Source of the DNA: Candidatus Gastranaerophilales bacterium
GTDB lineage: Bacteria > Cyanobacteriota > Vampirovibrionia > Gastranaerophilales > Gastranaerophilaceae
Direction: 5' to 3'
Length of the DNA: 64,000 nucleotides
Assembly: GCA_944323625.1 (NCBI GenBank)
Contig: CALUTD010000002.1
Span: 102,168 to 166,167 of the forward strand
Each line of letters begins with the position of its first letter. The stretch's first letter is position 1. The notes under the pieces were generated by a model, which did not search any database, was not told the origin of the DNA, and saw only the letters and a program-made list of their open reading frames with translations. Positions 3,689 to 53,420 of this stretch are shown piece after piece. The translations under genes were made by a program, and so were the position numbers.

Positions 3689-3697
3689 GGGGGGGGG
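3689..3697 (+). repeat. Homopolymer G9 tract, 10 nt after the helicase stop codon
   Basis: Direct count: g at positions 3689-3697. Confidence 0.95.
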
Positions 3698-3797: not shown

Positions 3798-4530
3798 ATG
3801 AATAAATTAATTGACCACTACGGGGGGGGGTAGAAACAGAGTAGTTTTTAGAATACTCTTTTCTTCACAAAAATTTTCATTTACACTTGCAGAAGTACTA
3901 ATAACACTTGTTATTATCGGAGTTATTGCAGCTATAACGGTTTCTTCTTTAATTGCTAATACCCAAAAACAAGAATATATTTCAAGATTAAAAAAGGCCG
4001 ATTCCGTTTTAAGACAGGCATTATATAAAGTCGCAATTGACTCGGGATATCCTGTTGGTGATTTTTCTTTTGTTTCAGATTATGAGTTTTTTGATGTTCT
4101 TAAAAAACATCTGAATACTATAAAAGTTTGTACAAAATCAGGTCAAGACTGTTTTCCTTCCGGTACAAAAACTTTAAAAGGGCAATTTCATTCTGATTAT
4201 AATAATATTGTATCATATTACACTCCGGCTTTTGTAACAGCTGACGGAATTGCGTTTAATTTTCAATGTTACGGAAGTGAAAAGTATTCATTTCAAAATA
4301 AAGGAATTTCAGAAGAAGATATTGAAAATGCACTTTGCAGAATTATGATAGATGTAAACGGGCAAAGTTCTCCCAATACATTTGGACGTGATTCTTTTTT
4401 TCTAATTATAGTAAACGGTAAAGGAGTTGTCGCAGCAGGGAGCGGAAATGACTCTGCAGATTGCAGCAAAAACGATAAAGGTTTTACATGTGCCGCACGA
4501 GTTTTGAAAACCGGTAAAATGGATTACTGA
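3798..4530 (+). CDS. Type IV pilin/pseudopilin-like protein (prepilin-type N-terminal FTLAEVLITL helix), out of frame as sequenced (phase-variable)
   Basis: RBS AAGGAGA at 3784-3790 and ATG 3798 give MNKLIDHYGGG and then stop at TAG 3831. The body (track ORF 3811..4530, ...RNRVVFRILFSSQKFSFTLAEVLITLVIIGVIAAI...) lies in the +1 frame. Eight or eleven G would restore the frame. Confidence 0.8.
3822..3830 (+). repeat. Homopolymer G9 tract inside the pilin leader codons (slipped-strand switch candidate)
   Basis: Direct count: g at positions 3822-3830, flanked by tac...tagaaacag. Confidence 0.95.
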
Positions 4531-9647: not shown

Positions 9648-10433
9648 TTATTTGCATTCCCTTTTTCCGCCCCAGGATAAATCACTGCACCTTAGGTAGT
9701 CCATATTTTCATTATAAATTACCCACGCAGTGCAGCCCATTCCGTTAACATAACTGTCATACGCACTACCAAATTTCTTAGTGTTTGTACAATACTTATA
9801 AAAAGAAATATGGTCTCCGTTTGTTCCGATAGGGTAAATTTCATCTTTTGTAAAATAAAAATCAAATAAATCACGACCCATAACATTGGGATTTTTATTT
9901 CCGTTTATGTCAACATTTATGTGACCGCATACATTCTTTACTTTTCCATATGTAAAACTACAATTCTTATTCCATGCTCTAAATTGAAAAACAAGCCCGT
10001 TAATTGTTTTAAATGCAGAATGAGTTTGTGTATTTAAATTCCTATAACAATTTTTTATTGCTTCTGCAGACGTCATATCCGTACAATCAGTTTGAACCTT
10101 CATATAAGGTATAAATTTTTTAGCAAGAATTTTATGTGATATATCATCATACATTCCCTGCATTCCCCATTCATCAGGACTTCCCTCATCTTTTAATATC
10201 ATTCCGTATGCTTGAGAAAGCATTGAATAGGCCTGTTTTACTCTTTGTACCGTTGCTTTTTCCTGTATATCCGTAATTAAAATCATAATGGTTATTGCGG
10301 CAATGACCCCTATTACAACCAAAGTAATTAAAACTTCCGAAAGAGTGAATGAGAAATATTTACAAAGGAAGGAGTTTTTAAAAAGTAACCTGTTTCTACC
10401 CCCCCCCCCGTGGCGGTTTAATGATTTATTCAT
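9648..10433 (-). CDS. Type IV pilin/pseudopilin-like protein, paralog of 3798..4530, in frame
   Basis: MNKSLNRHGGGGRNRLLFKNSFLCKYFSFTLSEVLITLVVIGVIAAI... with a Cys-containing globular C-terminal domain. AGGAG (plus-strand ctcct 10442-10446) sits 8 nt from the ATG. Confidence 0.85.
   Translation of the reverse strand: MNKSLNRHGGGGRNRLLFKNSFLCKYFSFTLSEVLITLVVIGVIAAITIMILITDIQEKATVQRVKQAYSMLSQAYGMILKDEGSPDEWGMQGMYDDISHKILAKKFIPYMKVQTDCTDMTSAEAIKNCYRNLNTQTHSAFKTINGLVFQFRAWNKNCSFTYGKVKNVCGHINVDINGNKNPNVMGRDLFDFYFTKDEIYPIGTNGDHISFYKYCTNTKKFGSAYDSYVNGMGCTAWVIYNENMDYLRCSDLSWGGKRECK
10399..10409 (-). repeat. Homopolymer G11 tract (C11 on the plus strand) encoding the GGGG of the pilin leader
   Basis: Direct count: c at positions 10399-10409. 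Confidence 0.95.
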
Positions 10434-19901: not shown

Positions 19902-20699
19902 ATGAAATTAATGGAAGGCAAAAGAGGTGTTATATTCGGCGTTTCTAACACTCATGGAATTGCATACGGTATCGCAAAACAATTATTTGAAGCAGGTGCC
20001 GAAATAGCATTTACTTATGCGGGCGAAGTAATGGAAAAACGTGTACGCCCGATAGCTGAAGGCATGAATGCAAAAGTCATTATGTCATGCGATGTAACAA
20101 AAGAAGAAGAAGTAAAAGCTGTATTCGCAGAACTGGAAAAAGTTTACGGAAAAATTGATTTTGTTGTTCATGCAGTTGCTTTTGCAAACAGAGAAGACTT
20201 AACCGGCGAATTTATTAATACATCAAAAGCAGGCTGGGATTTGGCAATGGGTGTAAGTGCATATTCACTTGTATCTTTAGCAAGAAATGCAAAACCGATT
20301 ATGAATGAAGGCGGTTCAATTTTAGCGTTAACATATCTTGGCGGTGAAAAAGTCGTTGCAAATTATAACATTATGGGAGTTGCTAAAGCTGCTTTAGAAT
20401 CATCTGCAAGATATTTAGCAGAAAACCTTGGCAAATGCGGTGTAAGAGTTAACTGTATATCTGCAGGTGCAGTTAAAACACTTGCGGCTTCAGGTATTGA
20501 CGGATTTGGAAAAATGCTTAAAGCTGCTGTATTAAAAGCTCCATTAAAAAGAAATGTAACTCTTGAAGATGTCGGAAAAACAGGTTTATACCTTTTATCT
20601 GATTTATCATCAGGTGTTACAGGTGAAATTATTCACGTAGATTGCGGATGTCATTGTGTATATGCCTCAAGCGAAGAAATGGAACTTGTTACAAAATAG
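19902..20699 (+). CDS. fabI: Enoyl-ACP reductase (NADH) FabI
   Basis: MKLMEGKRGVIFGV..., with LTYLGGEKVVANYNIMGVAKAALESSARYLA and RVNCISAGAVKT. The start at 19902 has AAGGGGA upstream. Confidence 0.9.
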   Translation: MKLMEGKRGVIFGVSNTHGIAYGIAKQLFEAGAEIAFTYAGEVMEKRVRPIAEGMNAKVIMSCDVTKEEEVKAVFAELEKVYGKIDFVVHAVAFANREDLTGEFINTSKAGWDLAMGVSAYSLVSLARNAKPIMNEGGSILALTYLGGEKVVANYNIMGVAKAALESSARYLAENLGKCGVRVNCISAGAVKTLAASGIDGFGKMLKAAVLKAPLKRNVTLEDVGKTGLYLLSDLSSGVTGEIIHVDCGCHCVYASSEEMELVTK

Positions 20700-20718
20700 T
20701 TAATAACAATCTAATCTA

Positions 20719-21150
20719 GTGTCGCCCCAATTTTTCGCCGTGTGTCTTGAATTTTCTTTACGCTCCAAGCGTATCGCCTCTGAGGCTTTGCCTCTGCCGG
20801 CTTTTGCTTGTCGCTTACCGGGCTGCGCCCGTCCGAAAATTCGCTCATCCACGCCGAAAAATTGGGGCTCACCTTTTGAAGCGCCCTCACCTAGCAGCTA
20901 CGCTGCGTCGGATACAAGCTCACAAGCATCACCTTCGGTTCTGCTGTTCGTTTTGTAACAAAAAGTTACTCACACCCTTCGGGCATCTTGGATTTTTCTG
21001 TCTTTCGGGCAAGTCGTTCATTACGCTATCGCTGTCATTCACTATTGCCCTCATATACTCGGGCTTTCGCCCTTTCGAAAAATCCGCTTATCGTAACTTT
21101 TTGCTCGGACAAATTTAGAATTGTTGTGGTAGAAACCACAACCTACATTT
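20719..21150. ncRNA. Candidate structured RNA or GC-rich intergenic element, class unknown
   Basis: GC-enriched by hand count (58% over 20761-20940) in an AT-rich genome. It contains several helices, including an 18-bp long-range one. It has no credible ORF. The strand is unresolved. Confidence 0.35.
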
Positions 21151-21224
21151 GAAACTTTTTGTTCGGATATTCTAAACAGACTTTAATTTTTTTGATATAT
21201 ACTTATTTATATAGGACATAGAAA

Positions 21225-22637
21225 ATGTATAAAATTAATTCCGACAAAGCAGAAACATTTATTTCAAATGAAGAAATTATAGCAACAATAGAGTTTGCAC
21301 AAAAAAATAAAAATAACAAAGCATTTATAAAAGATATTCTAAATAAAGCGAACGAAAAAAAAGGCTTAAATCATAGAGAAGCTGCAATACTTCTTTTATG
21401 TGAAGAGAAAGAAATTATTGAAAAAATTTTTACACTGGCAAAAGAAATAAAACAAGAGTTCTACGGAAACAGAATTGTTTTGTTTGCACCATTATACTTA
21501 TCAAATTATTGTATAAACGGATGTACATATTGCCCATATCATCTTATAAATAAACATATTCCAAGAAAAAAAATGACCCAGGAAGAAATAAGAAATGAAG
21601 TAATTGCACTTCAGGATATGGGGCATAAAAGACTTGCAATAGAATCAGGCGAAGATCCTGTTAATAATCCGATTGAATATATACTGGAATCAATAGAAAC
21701 AATATATTCCGTAAAGCATAAGAACGGTGCAATAAGACGGGTCAATGTAAATATTGCGGCAACAACGGTTGAAAATTACAAAAAGCTTCACAATGCTAAA
21801 ATAGGAACATATATACTGTTTCAAGAAACATATAATAAAAAGACGTATGAAGAATTACACCCGTTCGGGCCGAAACATAACTATCAATACCATACGGAAG
21901 CTTTGGACAGAGCTATGCAAGGCGGCATTGATGATGTAGGAATGGGAGTCTTATTTGGGCTTGATAATTATTTATATGAATTTATCGGGCTTCTTATGCA
22001 TAAAGAACATTTAGAATCCGTTTATAATATAGGACCTCATACTATCAGTCTGCCAAGGATTAGAAAAGCTGATGATATAGAAGTTTCAAACTTTAAAAAT
22101 TCTATAGATGATGACACATTTAAAAAAATAACAGCTTTAATAAGAATATCAGTACCTTATACGGGGCTTATAATCTCAACAAGAGAAAACGAAAAAATGA
22201 GAGAAAAACTTCTTGAACTCGGAGTATCTCAAATTTCAGGAGGTTCAAAAACAAGCGTCGGTGGTTATTATAAACAAGAGAAAGAGGACTCAAGCCAGTT
22301 TGAAGTTAATGATAACAGAACTCTTGATGAAGTAGTAAATTGGCTAATGAAACTCAATTATCTTCCGAGTTTTTGTACTGCTTGTTACGGAAACAACAGA
22401 ACCGGCGAAAAATTTATGTCTTTATGCAAAGAGAAACAAATACACAACTTTTGTCATCCGAATGCAATAATGACCTTAAAAGAATATCTAACGGATTATG
22501 CTTCCAATGAATCGAAATTGACAGGTGAAAAACTTATTCAATCAGAAATTAGCAAAATAAAAAATGAAACAATAAAACAATCAGTACTGACAAATATCTC
22601 AAAAATATCCAACGACGAAAGAAATTTTAAATTTTAA
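21225..22637 (+). CDS. hydG: [FeFe]-hydrogenase maturase HydG (radical SAM tyrosine lyase)
   Basis: 470 aa with the CINGCTYCPY radical-SAM motif and the C-terminal CTACYGNNRTGEKFMSLC...FCHPNA auxiliary-cluster motif. Confidence 0.85.
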   Translation: MYKINSDKAETFISNEEIIATIEFAQKNKNNKAFIKDILNKANEKKGLNHREAAILLLCEEKEIIEKIFTLAKEIKQEFYGNRIVLFAPLYLSNYCINGCTYCPYHLINKHIPRKKMTQEEIRNEVIALQDMGHKRLAIESGEDPVNNPIEYILESIETIYSVKHKNGAIRRVNVNIAATTVENYKKLHNAKIGTYILFQETYNKKTYEELHPFGPKHNYQYHTEALDRAMQGGIDDVGMGVLFGLDNYLYEFIGLLMHKEHLESVYNIGPHTISLPRIRKADDIEVSNFKNSIDDDTFKKITALIRISVPYTGLIISTRENEKMREKLLELGVSQISGGSKTSVGGYYKQEKEDSSQFEVNDNRTLDEVVNWLMKLNYLPSFCTACYGNNRTGEKFMSLCKEKQIHNFCHPNAIMTLKEYLTDYASNESKLTGEKLIQSEISKIKNETIKQSVLTNISKISNDERNFKF

Positions 22638-24831: not shown

Positions 24832-24990
24832 CGGGGGGGGGGAACTTTAGGGTTTAATTCGCATAATTTACAAAAATTAACAATAGTAAAATATTTTTTA
24901 ACAAAAAAATATTTACGTGGTTTTAAAATAGCATATTAATAAACAGGAACAAAAAAACATGAAAAAATTATCAAAAAATCCCCCCCCCCG
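24832..24990. promoter_or_regulatory. Segment bounded by a perfect 12-nt inverted repeat, cG10a (24832-24843) and tC10g (24979-24990); candidate phase-variation element
   Basis: Direct count of both tracts. The 135-bp AT-rich interior lies upstream of the gene starting at 24791 and contains TTGTAA-N18-TAAAGT on the minus strand, abutting the tract. Confidence 0.5.
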
Positions 24991-44832: not shown

Positions 44833-44850
44833 TTTAAATTCTCTCCGCTA

Positions 44851-45297
44851 TTAATACATACTACCTTGAGGCATACCGGCACCTGACATTAATAAACCAA
44901 AAATAGCTATAAAATAAAATACAGAGAAAATTAAACCTATAATAAGTAATATAAGTCCGGCAATTACCCATTTTTTTTGATATTCATGAAATTGCCTTAC
45001 ACCTTCAAAATATTTATTTTGCCACGCCCATTCATTACCTTTTATACCAAACCAAATTAAAACACCTAAATTTACAAAAGGAATCCAGCAAAGAACCAAA
45101 TATAACAATGTTATATATGATTTATTACCGATACCCCATATCCAGGATAAAAGAAAAGCACCCCAGTTAAAATGGTTTTTTACAACGGCAGGTACATTAA
45201 CTCTGCTGCCTTTCCCTGAATTATTTACAAACTTTCTTTTCGGCGGGTTGCTATTTTTTGTAATCTCACATTTTGAGAACTATTTTCATCTGACATA
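44851..45297 (-). pseudogene. Frameshifted paralog of the NWGAF/GNEWAW membrane-protein module
   Basis: ATG 45297 (RBS AGGAGA) opens MSDENSSQNVRLQKIATRRKESL and then stops. The conserved NHFNWGAFLLSWIWGIGNKSYI...GIKGNEWAWQNK continues in another frame with no ATG. One extra A in the A6 run (about 45253-45258) would join the two. Confidence 0.6.
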
Positions 45298-45431
45298 ATA
45301 ATCTCCTATTATTGTAACTTTAAATATTATATAATTTTACAAATTTATTGAACTCATATAAAAAACTTATTTGCTTGTTAAAATAAGAAATTTTATGTAG
45401 AATAAAGTTATTGTTAAAGAGTGGAGGCAAG

Positions 45432-51777: not shown

Positions 51778-52986
51778 TTATTCAGTAATTTTATCTACAA
51801 CGCCTGCGCCAACTGTACGTCCGCCTTCTCTGATAGCGAATCTCATACCTTGTTCAATAGCAACAGGAGAGATTAACTCAACGTCCATAACAACGTTATC
51901 ACCAGGCATAACCATTTCACCGTCAAATTTAATTGAACCGGTAACGTCAGTTGTTCTGATGTAGAACTGAGGTCTGTAACCCGGGAAGAAAGGAGTGTGA
52001 CGTCCGCCTTCATCTTTAGTTAAAACGTAAACGTTTGCAGTAAACTTAGTGTGTGGTTTTATTGAACCGGGAGCTGCTAAAACTTGTCCTCTTTGAACTT
52101 CAGTTTTATCAACACCTCTTAATAAAGCACCGATATTGTCACCTGCAATACCTTCATCAAGAAGTTTTCTGAACATTTCAACACCTGTTACGGTAGTTTT
52201 CTTGGTTTCGCCGAAACCAACGATTTCAACTTCCTGACCTACTTTAACTTTACCACGTTCAACTCTACCTGTAGCAACTGTACCACGACCTGTGATAGAG
52301 AAAACGTCTTCAACCGGCATTAAGAACGGTTGATCAACATCACGTTCGGGAGTAGGAATCCAAGTATCAACTGCATCCATAAGTTCCCAAATTTTATCTA
52401 CCCATTTATCTTGACCGCGGGCAATTGTAGGATTAGCTTGAACAGCTTCCAATGCTTTTAATGCAGAACCTTTGATGAATGGAGTATTGTCACCGTCAAA
52501 TTCATATTTTGACAATAATTCTCTTGATTCCATTTCAACAAGTTCAAGTAATTCTTCATCTTCAACCATATCGCATTTGTTGAGGAATACAACCAATTTA
52601 GGAACACCAACCTGTCTTGCAAGTAAGATGTGTTCTCTTGTTTGAGGCATTGCACCGTCTGTAGCTGCAATAACGAGGATTGCACCGTCCATTTGAGCAG
52701 CACCTGTAATCATGTTTTTTACATAGTCTGCGTGCCCGGGGCAGTCAACGTGTGCATAGTGTCTTGCATCTGTTTCGTATTCTACGTGTGCTGTAGAAAT
52801 AGTAATACCTCTTGCTTTTTCTTCGGGAGCTGCGTCGATTTCGTCAAACTTTTTAGCTTGAGCTTTACCAACAGCTGCCATACAAGATGTAATTGCTGCA
52901 GTTAACGTTGTTTTACCGTGGTCTACGTGTCCGACGGTACCAATGTTAACGTGCGGTTTGGTTCTTTCAAACTTTTCGCGTGCCAT
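51778..52986 (-). CDS. tuf: Elongation factor Tu
   Basis: [18 protein letters not shown] and NKCD motifs; 402 aa. Confidence 0.98.
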
Positions 52987-53051: not shown

Positions 53052-53123
53052 AGCCCTTGACGGGACTTGAACCCGTGACCTTTCCCTTACCAAGGGAATG
53101 CGCTACCACTGCGCCACAAGGGC
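53052..53123 (-). tRNA. tRNA-Thr (anticodon GGU)
   Basis: Hand-folded cloverleaf: acceptor GCCCTTG/CAAGGGC, anticodon loop TTGGTAA, T-arm ACGGG-TTCAAGT-CCCGT. Confidence 0.9.
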
Positions 53124-53229
53124 AAACTTAAATTTAATTTAACGCACATTCCTTACGGGAATGTTGCCTCTCGGCAGAGTCACTGTGCCGCAAGACAAAT
53201 GACTTTGCACCGTATGGGCTCATAAAAAA

Positions 53230-53312
53230 TGGGCAGAGGTGGATTCGAACCACCGTAGACTCGCGTCAACAGATTTACAGTCTGTCGCCTTTAGCCACTC
53301 GGCCATCTACCC
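53230..53312 (-). tRNA. tRNA-Tyr (anticodon GUA), long variable arm
   Basis: Anticodon stem ACAGA/TCTGT with loop CTGTAAA, T-arm GGTGG-TTCGAAT-CCACC; 83 nt. Confidence 0.9.
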
Positions 53313-53348
53313 ACGTTATATTCAATTTCTAATGTACAACCTATAAAC

Positions 53349-53420
53349 AGCCGGTGATAGGAATCGAACCTACAACCTACGGTTTACAAAACCGTTGCTC
53401 TACCGTTGAGCTACACCGGC
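53349..53420 (-). tRNA. tRNA-Thr (anticodon UGU)
   Basis: Acceptor GCCGGTG/CACCGGC, anticodon loop TTTGTAA, T-arm GTAGG-TTCGATT-CCTAT. Confidence 0.9.

Follow-up and report, generated by a model that had tools for sequence, protein, structure and literature searches.

A GC-rich, hairpin-rich fabI-hydG spacer in a Gastranaerophilales bacterium as a probable copy of a family of nested mosaic repeats

What occupies the long, GC-rich spacer between fabI and a hydG-like gene in a bacterium that the names of homologues place in Gastranaerophilales? We analysed a stretch of 64,000 nucleotides (64 kb; hereafter the window), in which an earlier note had proposed a candidate large structured RNA of unknown class at this position. 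The gap measures 525 nt, as that note had it, from the fabI stop codon (20697-20699) to the hydG ATG (21225); the radical-SAM/BATS protein encoded downstream has homologues that carry the name HydG in their sources. The long GC-rich and helix-rich gap is itself real. The hand-counted G+C values (104/180, 77/180 and 19/60) were exact on recount, and in a window of 31.7% GC the segment 20760-20959 (56% GC) forms the GC-richest 200 nt, ahead of a tRNA-Thr/tRNA-Tyr/tRNA-Thr cluster on the minus strand (53052-53420), which is the second GC-richest spot and adjoins a 402-aa ORF (51778-52986). That this is the longest intergenic gap is probably right: when ORF-free stretches are ranked by the list of ORFs of at least 90 aa, the sole longer one (44833-45410; 28% GC) contains a small membrane-protein ORF.

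The helices that had been described are present in the sequence: a long-range helix joining 20724-20742 with 20850-20868 (19 nt per arm, 18 paired, 95% complementary), GCAGC-tac-GCTGC (20894-20906), GTAAC-aaaaa-GTTAC (20955-20969), GGGC-tttc-GCCC (21061-21072) and GTTGTGGT-agaa-ACCACAAC (21123-21142). Both C(UUCG)G sites exist as well, but the predicted fold turns them into the triloop hairpins ACC-UUC-GGU and CCC-UUC-GGG. Measured against dinucleotide shuffles, the gap folds strongly on the plus strand (-152.4 kcal/mol, z -6.6) and on the minus strand (-170.1 kcal/mol, z -5.9); on neither strand did any of 100 shuffles equal the native fold. The 79-aa and 123-aa ORFs previously dismissed as noise exist, and neither matches Pfam. 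An Rfam scan, as suggested in that note, returned no family for the gap at the gathering score or at E<=10, in keeping with a region that is non-coding, strongly structured and outside the Rfam families. Neither a tRNA nor a tmRNA was found in the gap, and a promoter and terminator scan gave no terminator-like site and promoter-like sites no commoner than chance. At E<=0.1, seven related loci yielded nothing relevant in Rfam and no repeat copy was matched; Rfam matches elsewhere at the searched loci were tRNAs, RNase P RNA and chance matches only.

Segment 20710-21169 is a composite of repeat copies, and the high GC content and helices of the gap are explained by its being built of palindromic modules (Table 1; other contigs are designated L and a number, and L137, L135 and L139 may be of other species than the window's). 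The window copy holds two hairpin units of ~95 nt, U1 and U2, in nested arrangement. U1 encloses two hairpins, one of them branched and the other GGGC-tgc-GCCC (20821-20831); a similar unit lies at 16077-16180 of L139. In U2, a closing stem P1 (20990-20998 with 21077-21085) contains P2, the GGGC-tttc-GCCC hairpin given above, and P3, GGGCAA (21007-21012)/TTGCCC (21046-21051), around a conserved core (21010-21043) that is 85-91% identical in L095 and L138. This unit interrupts the helix PR, and comparison of its filled site with the empty one (GGGC^TTATCG) leaves a junction that allows a target duplication of 0-2 bp. The central module is 85% identical in L135 and L139a and is missing from the 119-nt copy L139b. 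The whole element has terminal inverted repeats of only 4 bp, TGTC...GACA, its outer ends being otherwise asymmetric. A direct repeat, D4 (AACTTTTTGYTCGGA), occurs at 21095-21109 and again at 21153-21167 in the short segment E2; E2 is probably a degenerate minimal element in tandem with E1, as the 34-nt minimal copy of L137 suggests by comparison.

Table 1. Positions of the repeat element, its modules and the flanking genes in the window
Feature	Position	Strand	Evidence or remarks
fabI (enoyl-ACP reductase), upstream flank	19902..20699	+	Pfam adh_short_C2, 1.2e-86
Element E1, full mosaic repeat copy from constant left to constant right end	20710..21111	+	402 nt; L008 diverges from 20710; ends common to L137, L135/L136, L139
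Constant left end TCTAATCTAGTGTCGC (family consensus TAATCYAGTGTCGC)	20710..20725	+	Motif opens every copy (pattern matches, alignment)
Outer hairpin P0, arms 20724-20742 / 20850-20868, encloses U1	20724..20868	+	19-nt inverted repeat, 95% complementary
Unit U1, closing stem P1 GAATTTTC (20749-20756) / GAAAATTC (20835-20842)	20745..20845	+	Folding, unit comparison
Central ~68-nt module CCTAGCAGCTACGCTGCG...GTTCGTTTTGTA	20890..20957	+	Most widely conserved part
Helix PR of right-end module, arms 20959-20969 / 21093-21103	20959..21103	+	11-bp perfect inverted repeat
Unit U2, 101-nt insertion relative to short-form copies	20985..21085	+	Empty site GGGC^TTATCG in L137 and L010
Constant right end TTATCGTAACTTTTTGCTCGGACA	21088..21111	+	Flanks of copies/strains diverge directly after ...GGACA
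E2, short second segment: left-end-like start AATTTAGAATTG, hairpin 21123-21142, right-end-like repeat 21151-21169	21112..21169	+	
hydG-like radical SAM maturase gene, downstream flank	21225..22637	+	Pfam radical-SAM/BATS; source names of homologues

As conspecific we took the 17 contigs that carry exactly the window's FabI or HydG. At least 13 of them end inside the element, fabI-side contigs stopping at 20784-20959 and hydG-side contigs starting at 20930-21132, which is explained by a multicopy repeat. An assembly artefact or chimera in the window contig, which so many breaks might bring to mind, is nevertheless the least probable reading of all, to be entertained hardly at all: an independent contig, L014, spans the entire gap at 99.3% identity, so that the window arrangement is real, and contigs from several samples overlap both element junctions at 100% identity. 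Two contigs, L008 and L017, are without the element. In L008, ~1.1 kb replaces 20710 to ~21167, where homology to the window resumes, and this DNA brings with it a terminator hairpin for fabI as well as a pilin-like DUF6613 gene on the minus strand. The fabI of the window allele has no terminator hairpin of its own; the element thus stands where another strain has a terminator and a pilin-like gene, and since it replaces that segment only a hairpin-rich spacer separates fabI and hydG. The L008 site carries other DNA, and hence there is no true empty site for the whole element. L010 retains 20710-20984 and 21086-21111, followed directly by another pilin-like gene, which is found in a different context in L054. 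Turnover is also seen in the pair L135 and L139a. Their flanking genes agree at 99.5-99.6% identity, yet over 227 nt the elements show 3 SNPs, besides which a 36-nt indel separates them and the DNA to the right is unrelated; the element therefore turns over faster than the genes around it. The flanks are swapped exactly at ...CTCGGACA, both between the window and L010 and between L135 and L139a.

Among more distant relatives the element does not accompany either gene. The nearest other HydG is 79% identical, and those genomes keep hydG-ACT-DUF711 with short, unrelated upstream spacers; the hydG neighbourhoods of relatives at 77-79% identity hold no homologous element. The same applies to the fabI neighbourhoods of relatives at 66-94% identity, except for single units upstream of fabI in L095 and L061, and at 88-94% FabI identity the downstream gaps are AT-rich and 56-137 nt long. 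Neither gene therefore has the element as a conserved companion. In two relatives with FabI at 66-68% identity, L101 (886-1045) and L098 (2586-2790), the fabI stop is directly followed by a non-coding element of another sort, GC-rich and purine-rich. These two elements are 88% identical to each other, that of L101 has a 26-nt direct repeat containing GTACCCGAAAGGCAAGGAGCCGACG, and neither shows an Rfam match or blast similarity to the window element. Among candidate HydG relatives, P0002 and P0003 (L048, L049; 627-631 aa) were rejected as Roseburia-type proteins with an internal duplication of ~125 aa of the radical-SAM core, because of which their score against the window HydG is inflated; the duplication could be real or an assembly artefact.

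Within the 64-kb window a self-search detected no second copy. Blastn in distant mode against phage and plasmid collections found no match, nor did a word-indexed protein search with six-frame translation, and in an exact look-up of the window ORFs none was present in the protein collection. Searched as patterns, the internal module gave 30 matches in the genome contig collection, all by chance, the left arm gave none in the metagenome and viral contig collections, and the module and core patterns gave none in the viral contig collection. Against the FabI loci, blastn returned a 34-nt match in L095 (91%, E 5e-7), which lies where a spacer rich in hairpins separates prfB from fabI. When the concatenated six-frame translation was compared exhaustively with 1.84 billion proteins by phmmer, 14 hypothetical ORFs came up (45-94% identity), one of them annotated as Candidatus Gastranaerophilales. 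They match in four different frames and on both strands, which indicates homology of DNA and not of protein, the ORFs being spurious calls over homologous DNA. None has a significant Pfam match, the only one listed being P0252 to DUF7864 at 16.8 bits, below the 27-bit cut-off; for P0241 no contig location was found.

Such results also bear on the possibility that the gap holds a decayed protein-coding gene, or a foreign fragment of higher GC captured at a recombination hot spot. Its GC lies far above the genome average, all six frames are poor in stops and the locus is a hot spot, where other strains have a pilin-like cassette. Nevertheless, no Pfam match was obtained, so large a protein collection gave only domain-less ORFs in conflicting frames, the phage and plasmid collections were silent, and the scarcity of stops is explained by the pyrimidine-rich composition of the strand. 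We thus regard this origin as extremely improbable.

Copies of the element were found in at least five other intergenic contexts, where they are 34 to ~300 nt long. Copy lengths in the family are 34, 119, ~225, ~262, ~300 and 402 nt, and module content differs. The short form in L137 (4047-4344), 96.7% identical, lies between a crp-like gene and mnmE, while the copies of L135/L136 and L139a, 85% identical in the central domain, directly follow a peptidase_M10 gene. Further copies are L139b (L139 9855-9973), the 34-nt copy of L137 (7825-7792) and an additional right end at L139 16434-16484; L095, L138 and L061 have unit-only copies, which in L138 stand in tandem. All full copies start with TAATCYAGTGTCGC and finish with CTTATCGTRAMTTTTTSCTCGGACA, and the flanks beyond are unrelated. 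The interior modules are optional, comprising a 5' domain of two alternative kinds, the ~68-nt central module and the 101-nt U2. All five copies that could be oriented (5/5) are co-directional with both neighbouring genes, and copies begin 3-50 nt past a stop codon. The family is non-coding, multicopy and strain-polymorphic and resides in short intergenic spacers; judged from these sequences, it seems to be specific to Gastranaerophilales, and its copy number appears to be in the tens, not the hundreds.

Some copies touch the genes next to them. In L137 (7819-7825, minus strand) the annotated acetyltransferase gene upstream ends on a TAG that belongs to the repeat left end AATCTAGTGTCGC, and the ORF call upstream of the 119-nt copy in L139 (9147-9998) runs on through that copy without a break; these repeats therefore lie at, or overlap, gene 3' ends. 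An RNase P RNA gene (Rfam RF00010) occurs 20 nt downstream of a repeat copy at L139 7728-8061, where the near-identical L135 has unrelated DNA after the same copy, and another is present at L138 11387-11744 (236-242 bits for the two genes).

The U units, 93-111 nt long, are known from the window (U1 and U2), L095, L138 (three), L139 (two) and L061. They share a common plan of closing stem P1, long inner hairpin and small GC hairpin, predicted to form three-way junctions. The P1 arms are fully complementary over 8-9 bp and differ in sequence: GAATTTTC/GAAAATTC in U1, GGATTTTTC/GAAAAATCC in U2, GGATTTGC/GCAAATCC in the U1-like unit of L139, and elsewhere GAATTTCC/GGAAATTC and GGATTTCT/AGAAATCC. 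Across seven units all cells of P1 are paired (56/56), three of the eight pairs change on both sides, and the covariation score was reached by none of 500 shuffles. The core stem P3 varies likewise, from GGGCAA/TTGCCC to GGACAA/TTGTCC and ACAAAAACAA/TTGTTTTTGT, around a 34-nt loop whose identity stays at 85-91% between species that share only 69% in FabI. Compensation extends to the scaffold: the PR arms covary between copies in three compensated versions (AAAAAGTTAC/GTAACTTTTT, AAAAATTCAC/GTGAATTTTT and AAAATTTCAC/GTGAAATTTT), and the central-module hairpin ACC-UUC-GGU (20931-20939) becomes GCC-UUU-GGC in L137, with both sides changed. The check for homologues and covariation that the earlier note had suggested was thus answered in part, homologues being found and several sub-helices showing compensatory changes among a small number of independent copies, but P0, the 14+4-bp long-range helix given first place there, is broken without compensation. 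Its variants CCCACA and CCCGCA each lose two pairs; CCCACA replaces CCCCAA at 20725-20730 in half of the conspecific contigs, and two pairs are likewise broken in the L137 copy.

In L095 and L139, U units sit inside the loops of GAYSCTGAAAC...GTTCAGSRTGAC hairpins, which also occur intact elsewhere in L139 with a loop of 2 nt. Segment 15590-16400 of L139 is dense in REP-like hairpins (GTCATCCCGAA..TTCGGGAT, and also GACCCTGAAACAAGTTCAGGGTGAC, which recurs about every 120 nt), with U-type units nested in some of them. In every copy the strand co-directional with the adjacent genes is the pyrimidine-rich one; its purine-rich complement, the minus strand, gave the better fold in each of 11 tests, and the strand cue from G-U versus A-C positions is split 2 versus 2.

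The reading that we favour, at a probability of roughly 60%, is that the element belongs to a new family of mosaic repeats, palindromic, nested and non-autonomous, that resemble MITEs and BIMEs. It agrees with MITEs in size, lack of coding capacity, the terminal arms of the U units, dispersed copies and insertion polymorphism. Between the constant ends of a scaffold, optional modules are gained or lost, among them the ~95-nt units that lie in the loops of other hairpins. In the mechanism that we put forward, the modules would be mobile DNA of the MITE/REPIN/BIME kind and would depend on an enzyme supplied in trans. Neither the window nor the fetched loci showed a transposase or any other gene for mobilisation, which, together with the want of an unambiguous target-site duplication and the mere 4 bp of terminal inverted repeat on the whole element, counts against the repeat reading. 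A single-strand, hairpin-recognising enzyme (HUH/Y1-type, like IS200/IS605 TnpA or RAYT) would be the favoured mover because the ends are asymmetric, no unambiguous target-site duplication was found, composition and orientation are biased with respect to strand, and insertion is into loops. In addition, copies may be substrates for ectopic recombination, giving arrangements such as that of L010; the flank swaps at ...GGACA would be due to such recombination between copies or to end-mediated rearrangement.

The hypothesis of mobile mosaic repeats and an RNA or single-stranded DNA function of the units are not mutually exclusive. The U units, or whole elements, might be functional RNA modules whose spread is secondary to function, either as a multicopy small-RNA family or in cis on operon transcripts, where they would protect 3' ends, direct processing or bring about termination between fabI and hydG. 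We consider this unlikely. In its favour are the strong fold z-scores, the compensatory changes in P1, P3 and PR, and the 34-nt loop conserved between covarying stems across distant species. So are the strand-asymmetric composition of every copy, the position of the element in place of the L008 fabI terminator, and the orientation and placement of copies shortly after stop codons. Covariation of the stems and the conserved core loop would also be expected of a functional RNA or single-stranded DNA motif, and the uniform orientation of copies may stem from a role as RNA; both count against the repeat reading. Nonetheless, the stems are all Watson-Crick and equally suited to DNA palindromes. The conspecific L008 does without the element, module content varies freely between copies, P0 decays uncompensated and turnover is fast between near-identical strains; the gap has no terminator-like site and only chance-level promoter-like sites, and the relevant strand is ambiguous, the minus folding better and the plus running with the genes. 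As for the ~95-nt U unit taken by itself, it is a candidate, though a rather doubtful one, for a new structured nucleic-acid motif with its own function. As RNA it could, for instance, bind a protein or serve processing within operon transcripts, perhaps read from the purine-rich strand; as DNA, a hairpin-loop-targeting mobile single-stranded element of an undescribed kind is conceivable.

The original proposal, taken as one new RNA gene of ~450-525 nt, large and structured in the manner of OLE, GOLLD or ROOL, is in our view very improbable. The length and GC content of the gap against an AT-rich genome, its strong folding and the lack of an Rfam match do recall such RNAs, and those parts of the proposal stand; its fixed architecture does not, the element being a mosaic of modules that differs between copies. 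A conspecific strain lacks the element, and so do relatives beside fabI and hydG; elsewhere copies measure 34-300 nt and combine other modules, U2 is an insertion, and P0 is not maintained. From the sequences compared, a large RNA gene thus seems largely refuted by the variable architecture. The heuristic of searching long GC-rich intergenic regions in AT-rich genomes catches selfish palindromic repeats and not RNA genes alone, and strain comparison together with a search for copies tells the two apart.

How does the element compare with known repeats? The REP, BIME and REPIN sequences of Proteobacteria are mobilised by RAYT (Y1 HUH) transposases (PMC2817692, PMC3116915). Like them, the element is non-coding, extragenic, palindromic, multicopy and strain-polymorphic, forms mosaic arrays and can fold into single-strand hairpins, and simple REP-like hairpins accompany the family in L139. 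In contrast, there is no sequence similarity, and the units are larger (~95 nt, with three-way junctions) and nested in other hairpins. No GTAG or CGTC tag was seen at hairpin feet in the unit and hairpin sequences read, no RAYT gene was found in the window or fetched loci, and all oriented copies run with the genes, whereas BIMEs alternate. Bacterial MITEs include ERIC/IRU, Correia/NEMIS and RUP (definition in PMC3116915). Shared with these are a length of 100-400 nt, terminal complementary arms, lack of coding capacity, intergenic position, insertion polymorphism, assembly breaks and, presumably, co-transcription with neighbours. Unlike MITEs, it shows no clear target-site duplication, no related autonomous IS was found in the fetched loci, and its terminal arms covary between copies instead of being conserved, with asymmetric outer ends in which TGTC/GACA alone are inverted.

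The Cyanobacteria, the sister lineage of Melainabacteria, have MITEs and small dispersed repeats (SDR), which are mobile, very short and able to build mosaic composites by inserting into each other or into hairpins between genes; such nested repeats were reportedly described by Elhai and colleagues in 2008, as cited in PMC3116915. The present element resembles these SDR in forming nested mosaics, but sequences and unit sizes differ as far as their description goes. Like integron attC sites, it is defined by structure, lies directly after genes in fixed orientation, and has short conserved ends, a variable and sometimes branched interior and an asymmetric active strand; moreover, a neighbouring pilin-like gene cassette changes locus between strains. 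Nevertheless, the R''/R' cores RYYYAAC/GTTRRRY are absent, no intI was seen and the element lies between ordinary housekeeping genes. An attC identity was rejected, with no IntI nearby and arms of the form GRATTT.../...AAATYC lacking the AAC/GTT core, as were a retron, group II intron, omega-RNA or bridge-RNA remnant and rRNA fragment, for which neither a nearby reverse transcriptase or transposase, nor an Rfam match, nor the expected motifs were found. With OLE, GOLLD, ROOL and raiA it has in common a long GC-rich intergenic region in an AT-rich genome and strong predicted structure; in contrast to their fixed conserved architecture and usually conserved context, the element is modular, variable, dispensable and without an Rfam model. 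In the literature on the lineage and on related kinds of repeat we found nothing on such a family; for Gastranaerophilales, which are gut-dwelling, non-photosynthetic relatives of Cyanobacteria, no interspersed repeat family appears to have been described before. With their covarying stems and conserved loop, the nested units are candidates for an RNA motif or for the recognition structure of a hairpin-specific mobilising enzyme.

The family fragments metagenome assemblies of this lineage and marks sites of rearrangement beside phase-variable pilin-like cassettes. Such DUF6613 cassettes, made up of a conserved leader and a gene, lie at L008 3687-4362, L010 2225-2863 and L054 286-786: between fabI and hydG in L008, abutting the repeat right end in L010, and among other neighbours in L054, whose gene is the same as that of L010 (96% identical). 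These strain-variable loci suggest, from their sequence arrangement, a shuffling of cassettes. In addition, the window, of 32% GC, has five homopolymeric G/C tracts of 9-11 nt (3689-3697, 3822-3830, 10399-10409, 24833-24842 and 24980-24989). Those at 3822 and 10399 lie ~8 codons past the ATG of pilin-like genes of N_methyl/DUF6613 type (3811-4530, plus strand; 9648-10433, minus strand), an arrangement that on its face is the classic layout of slipped-strand phase variation. The pilin-like genes of L008 (tract at ~4510) and L010 (~2847) show the same arrangement, and in L010 the frame of the ATG is out of register with 10 G.
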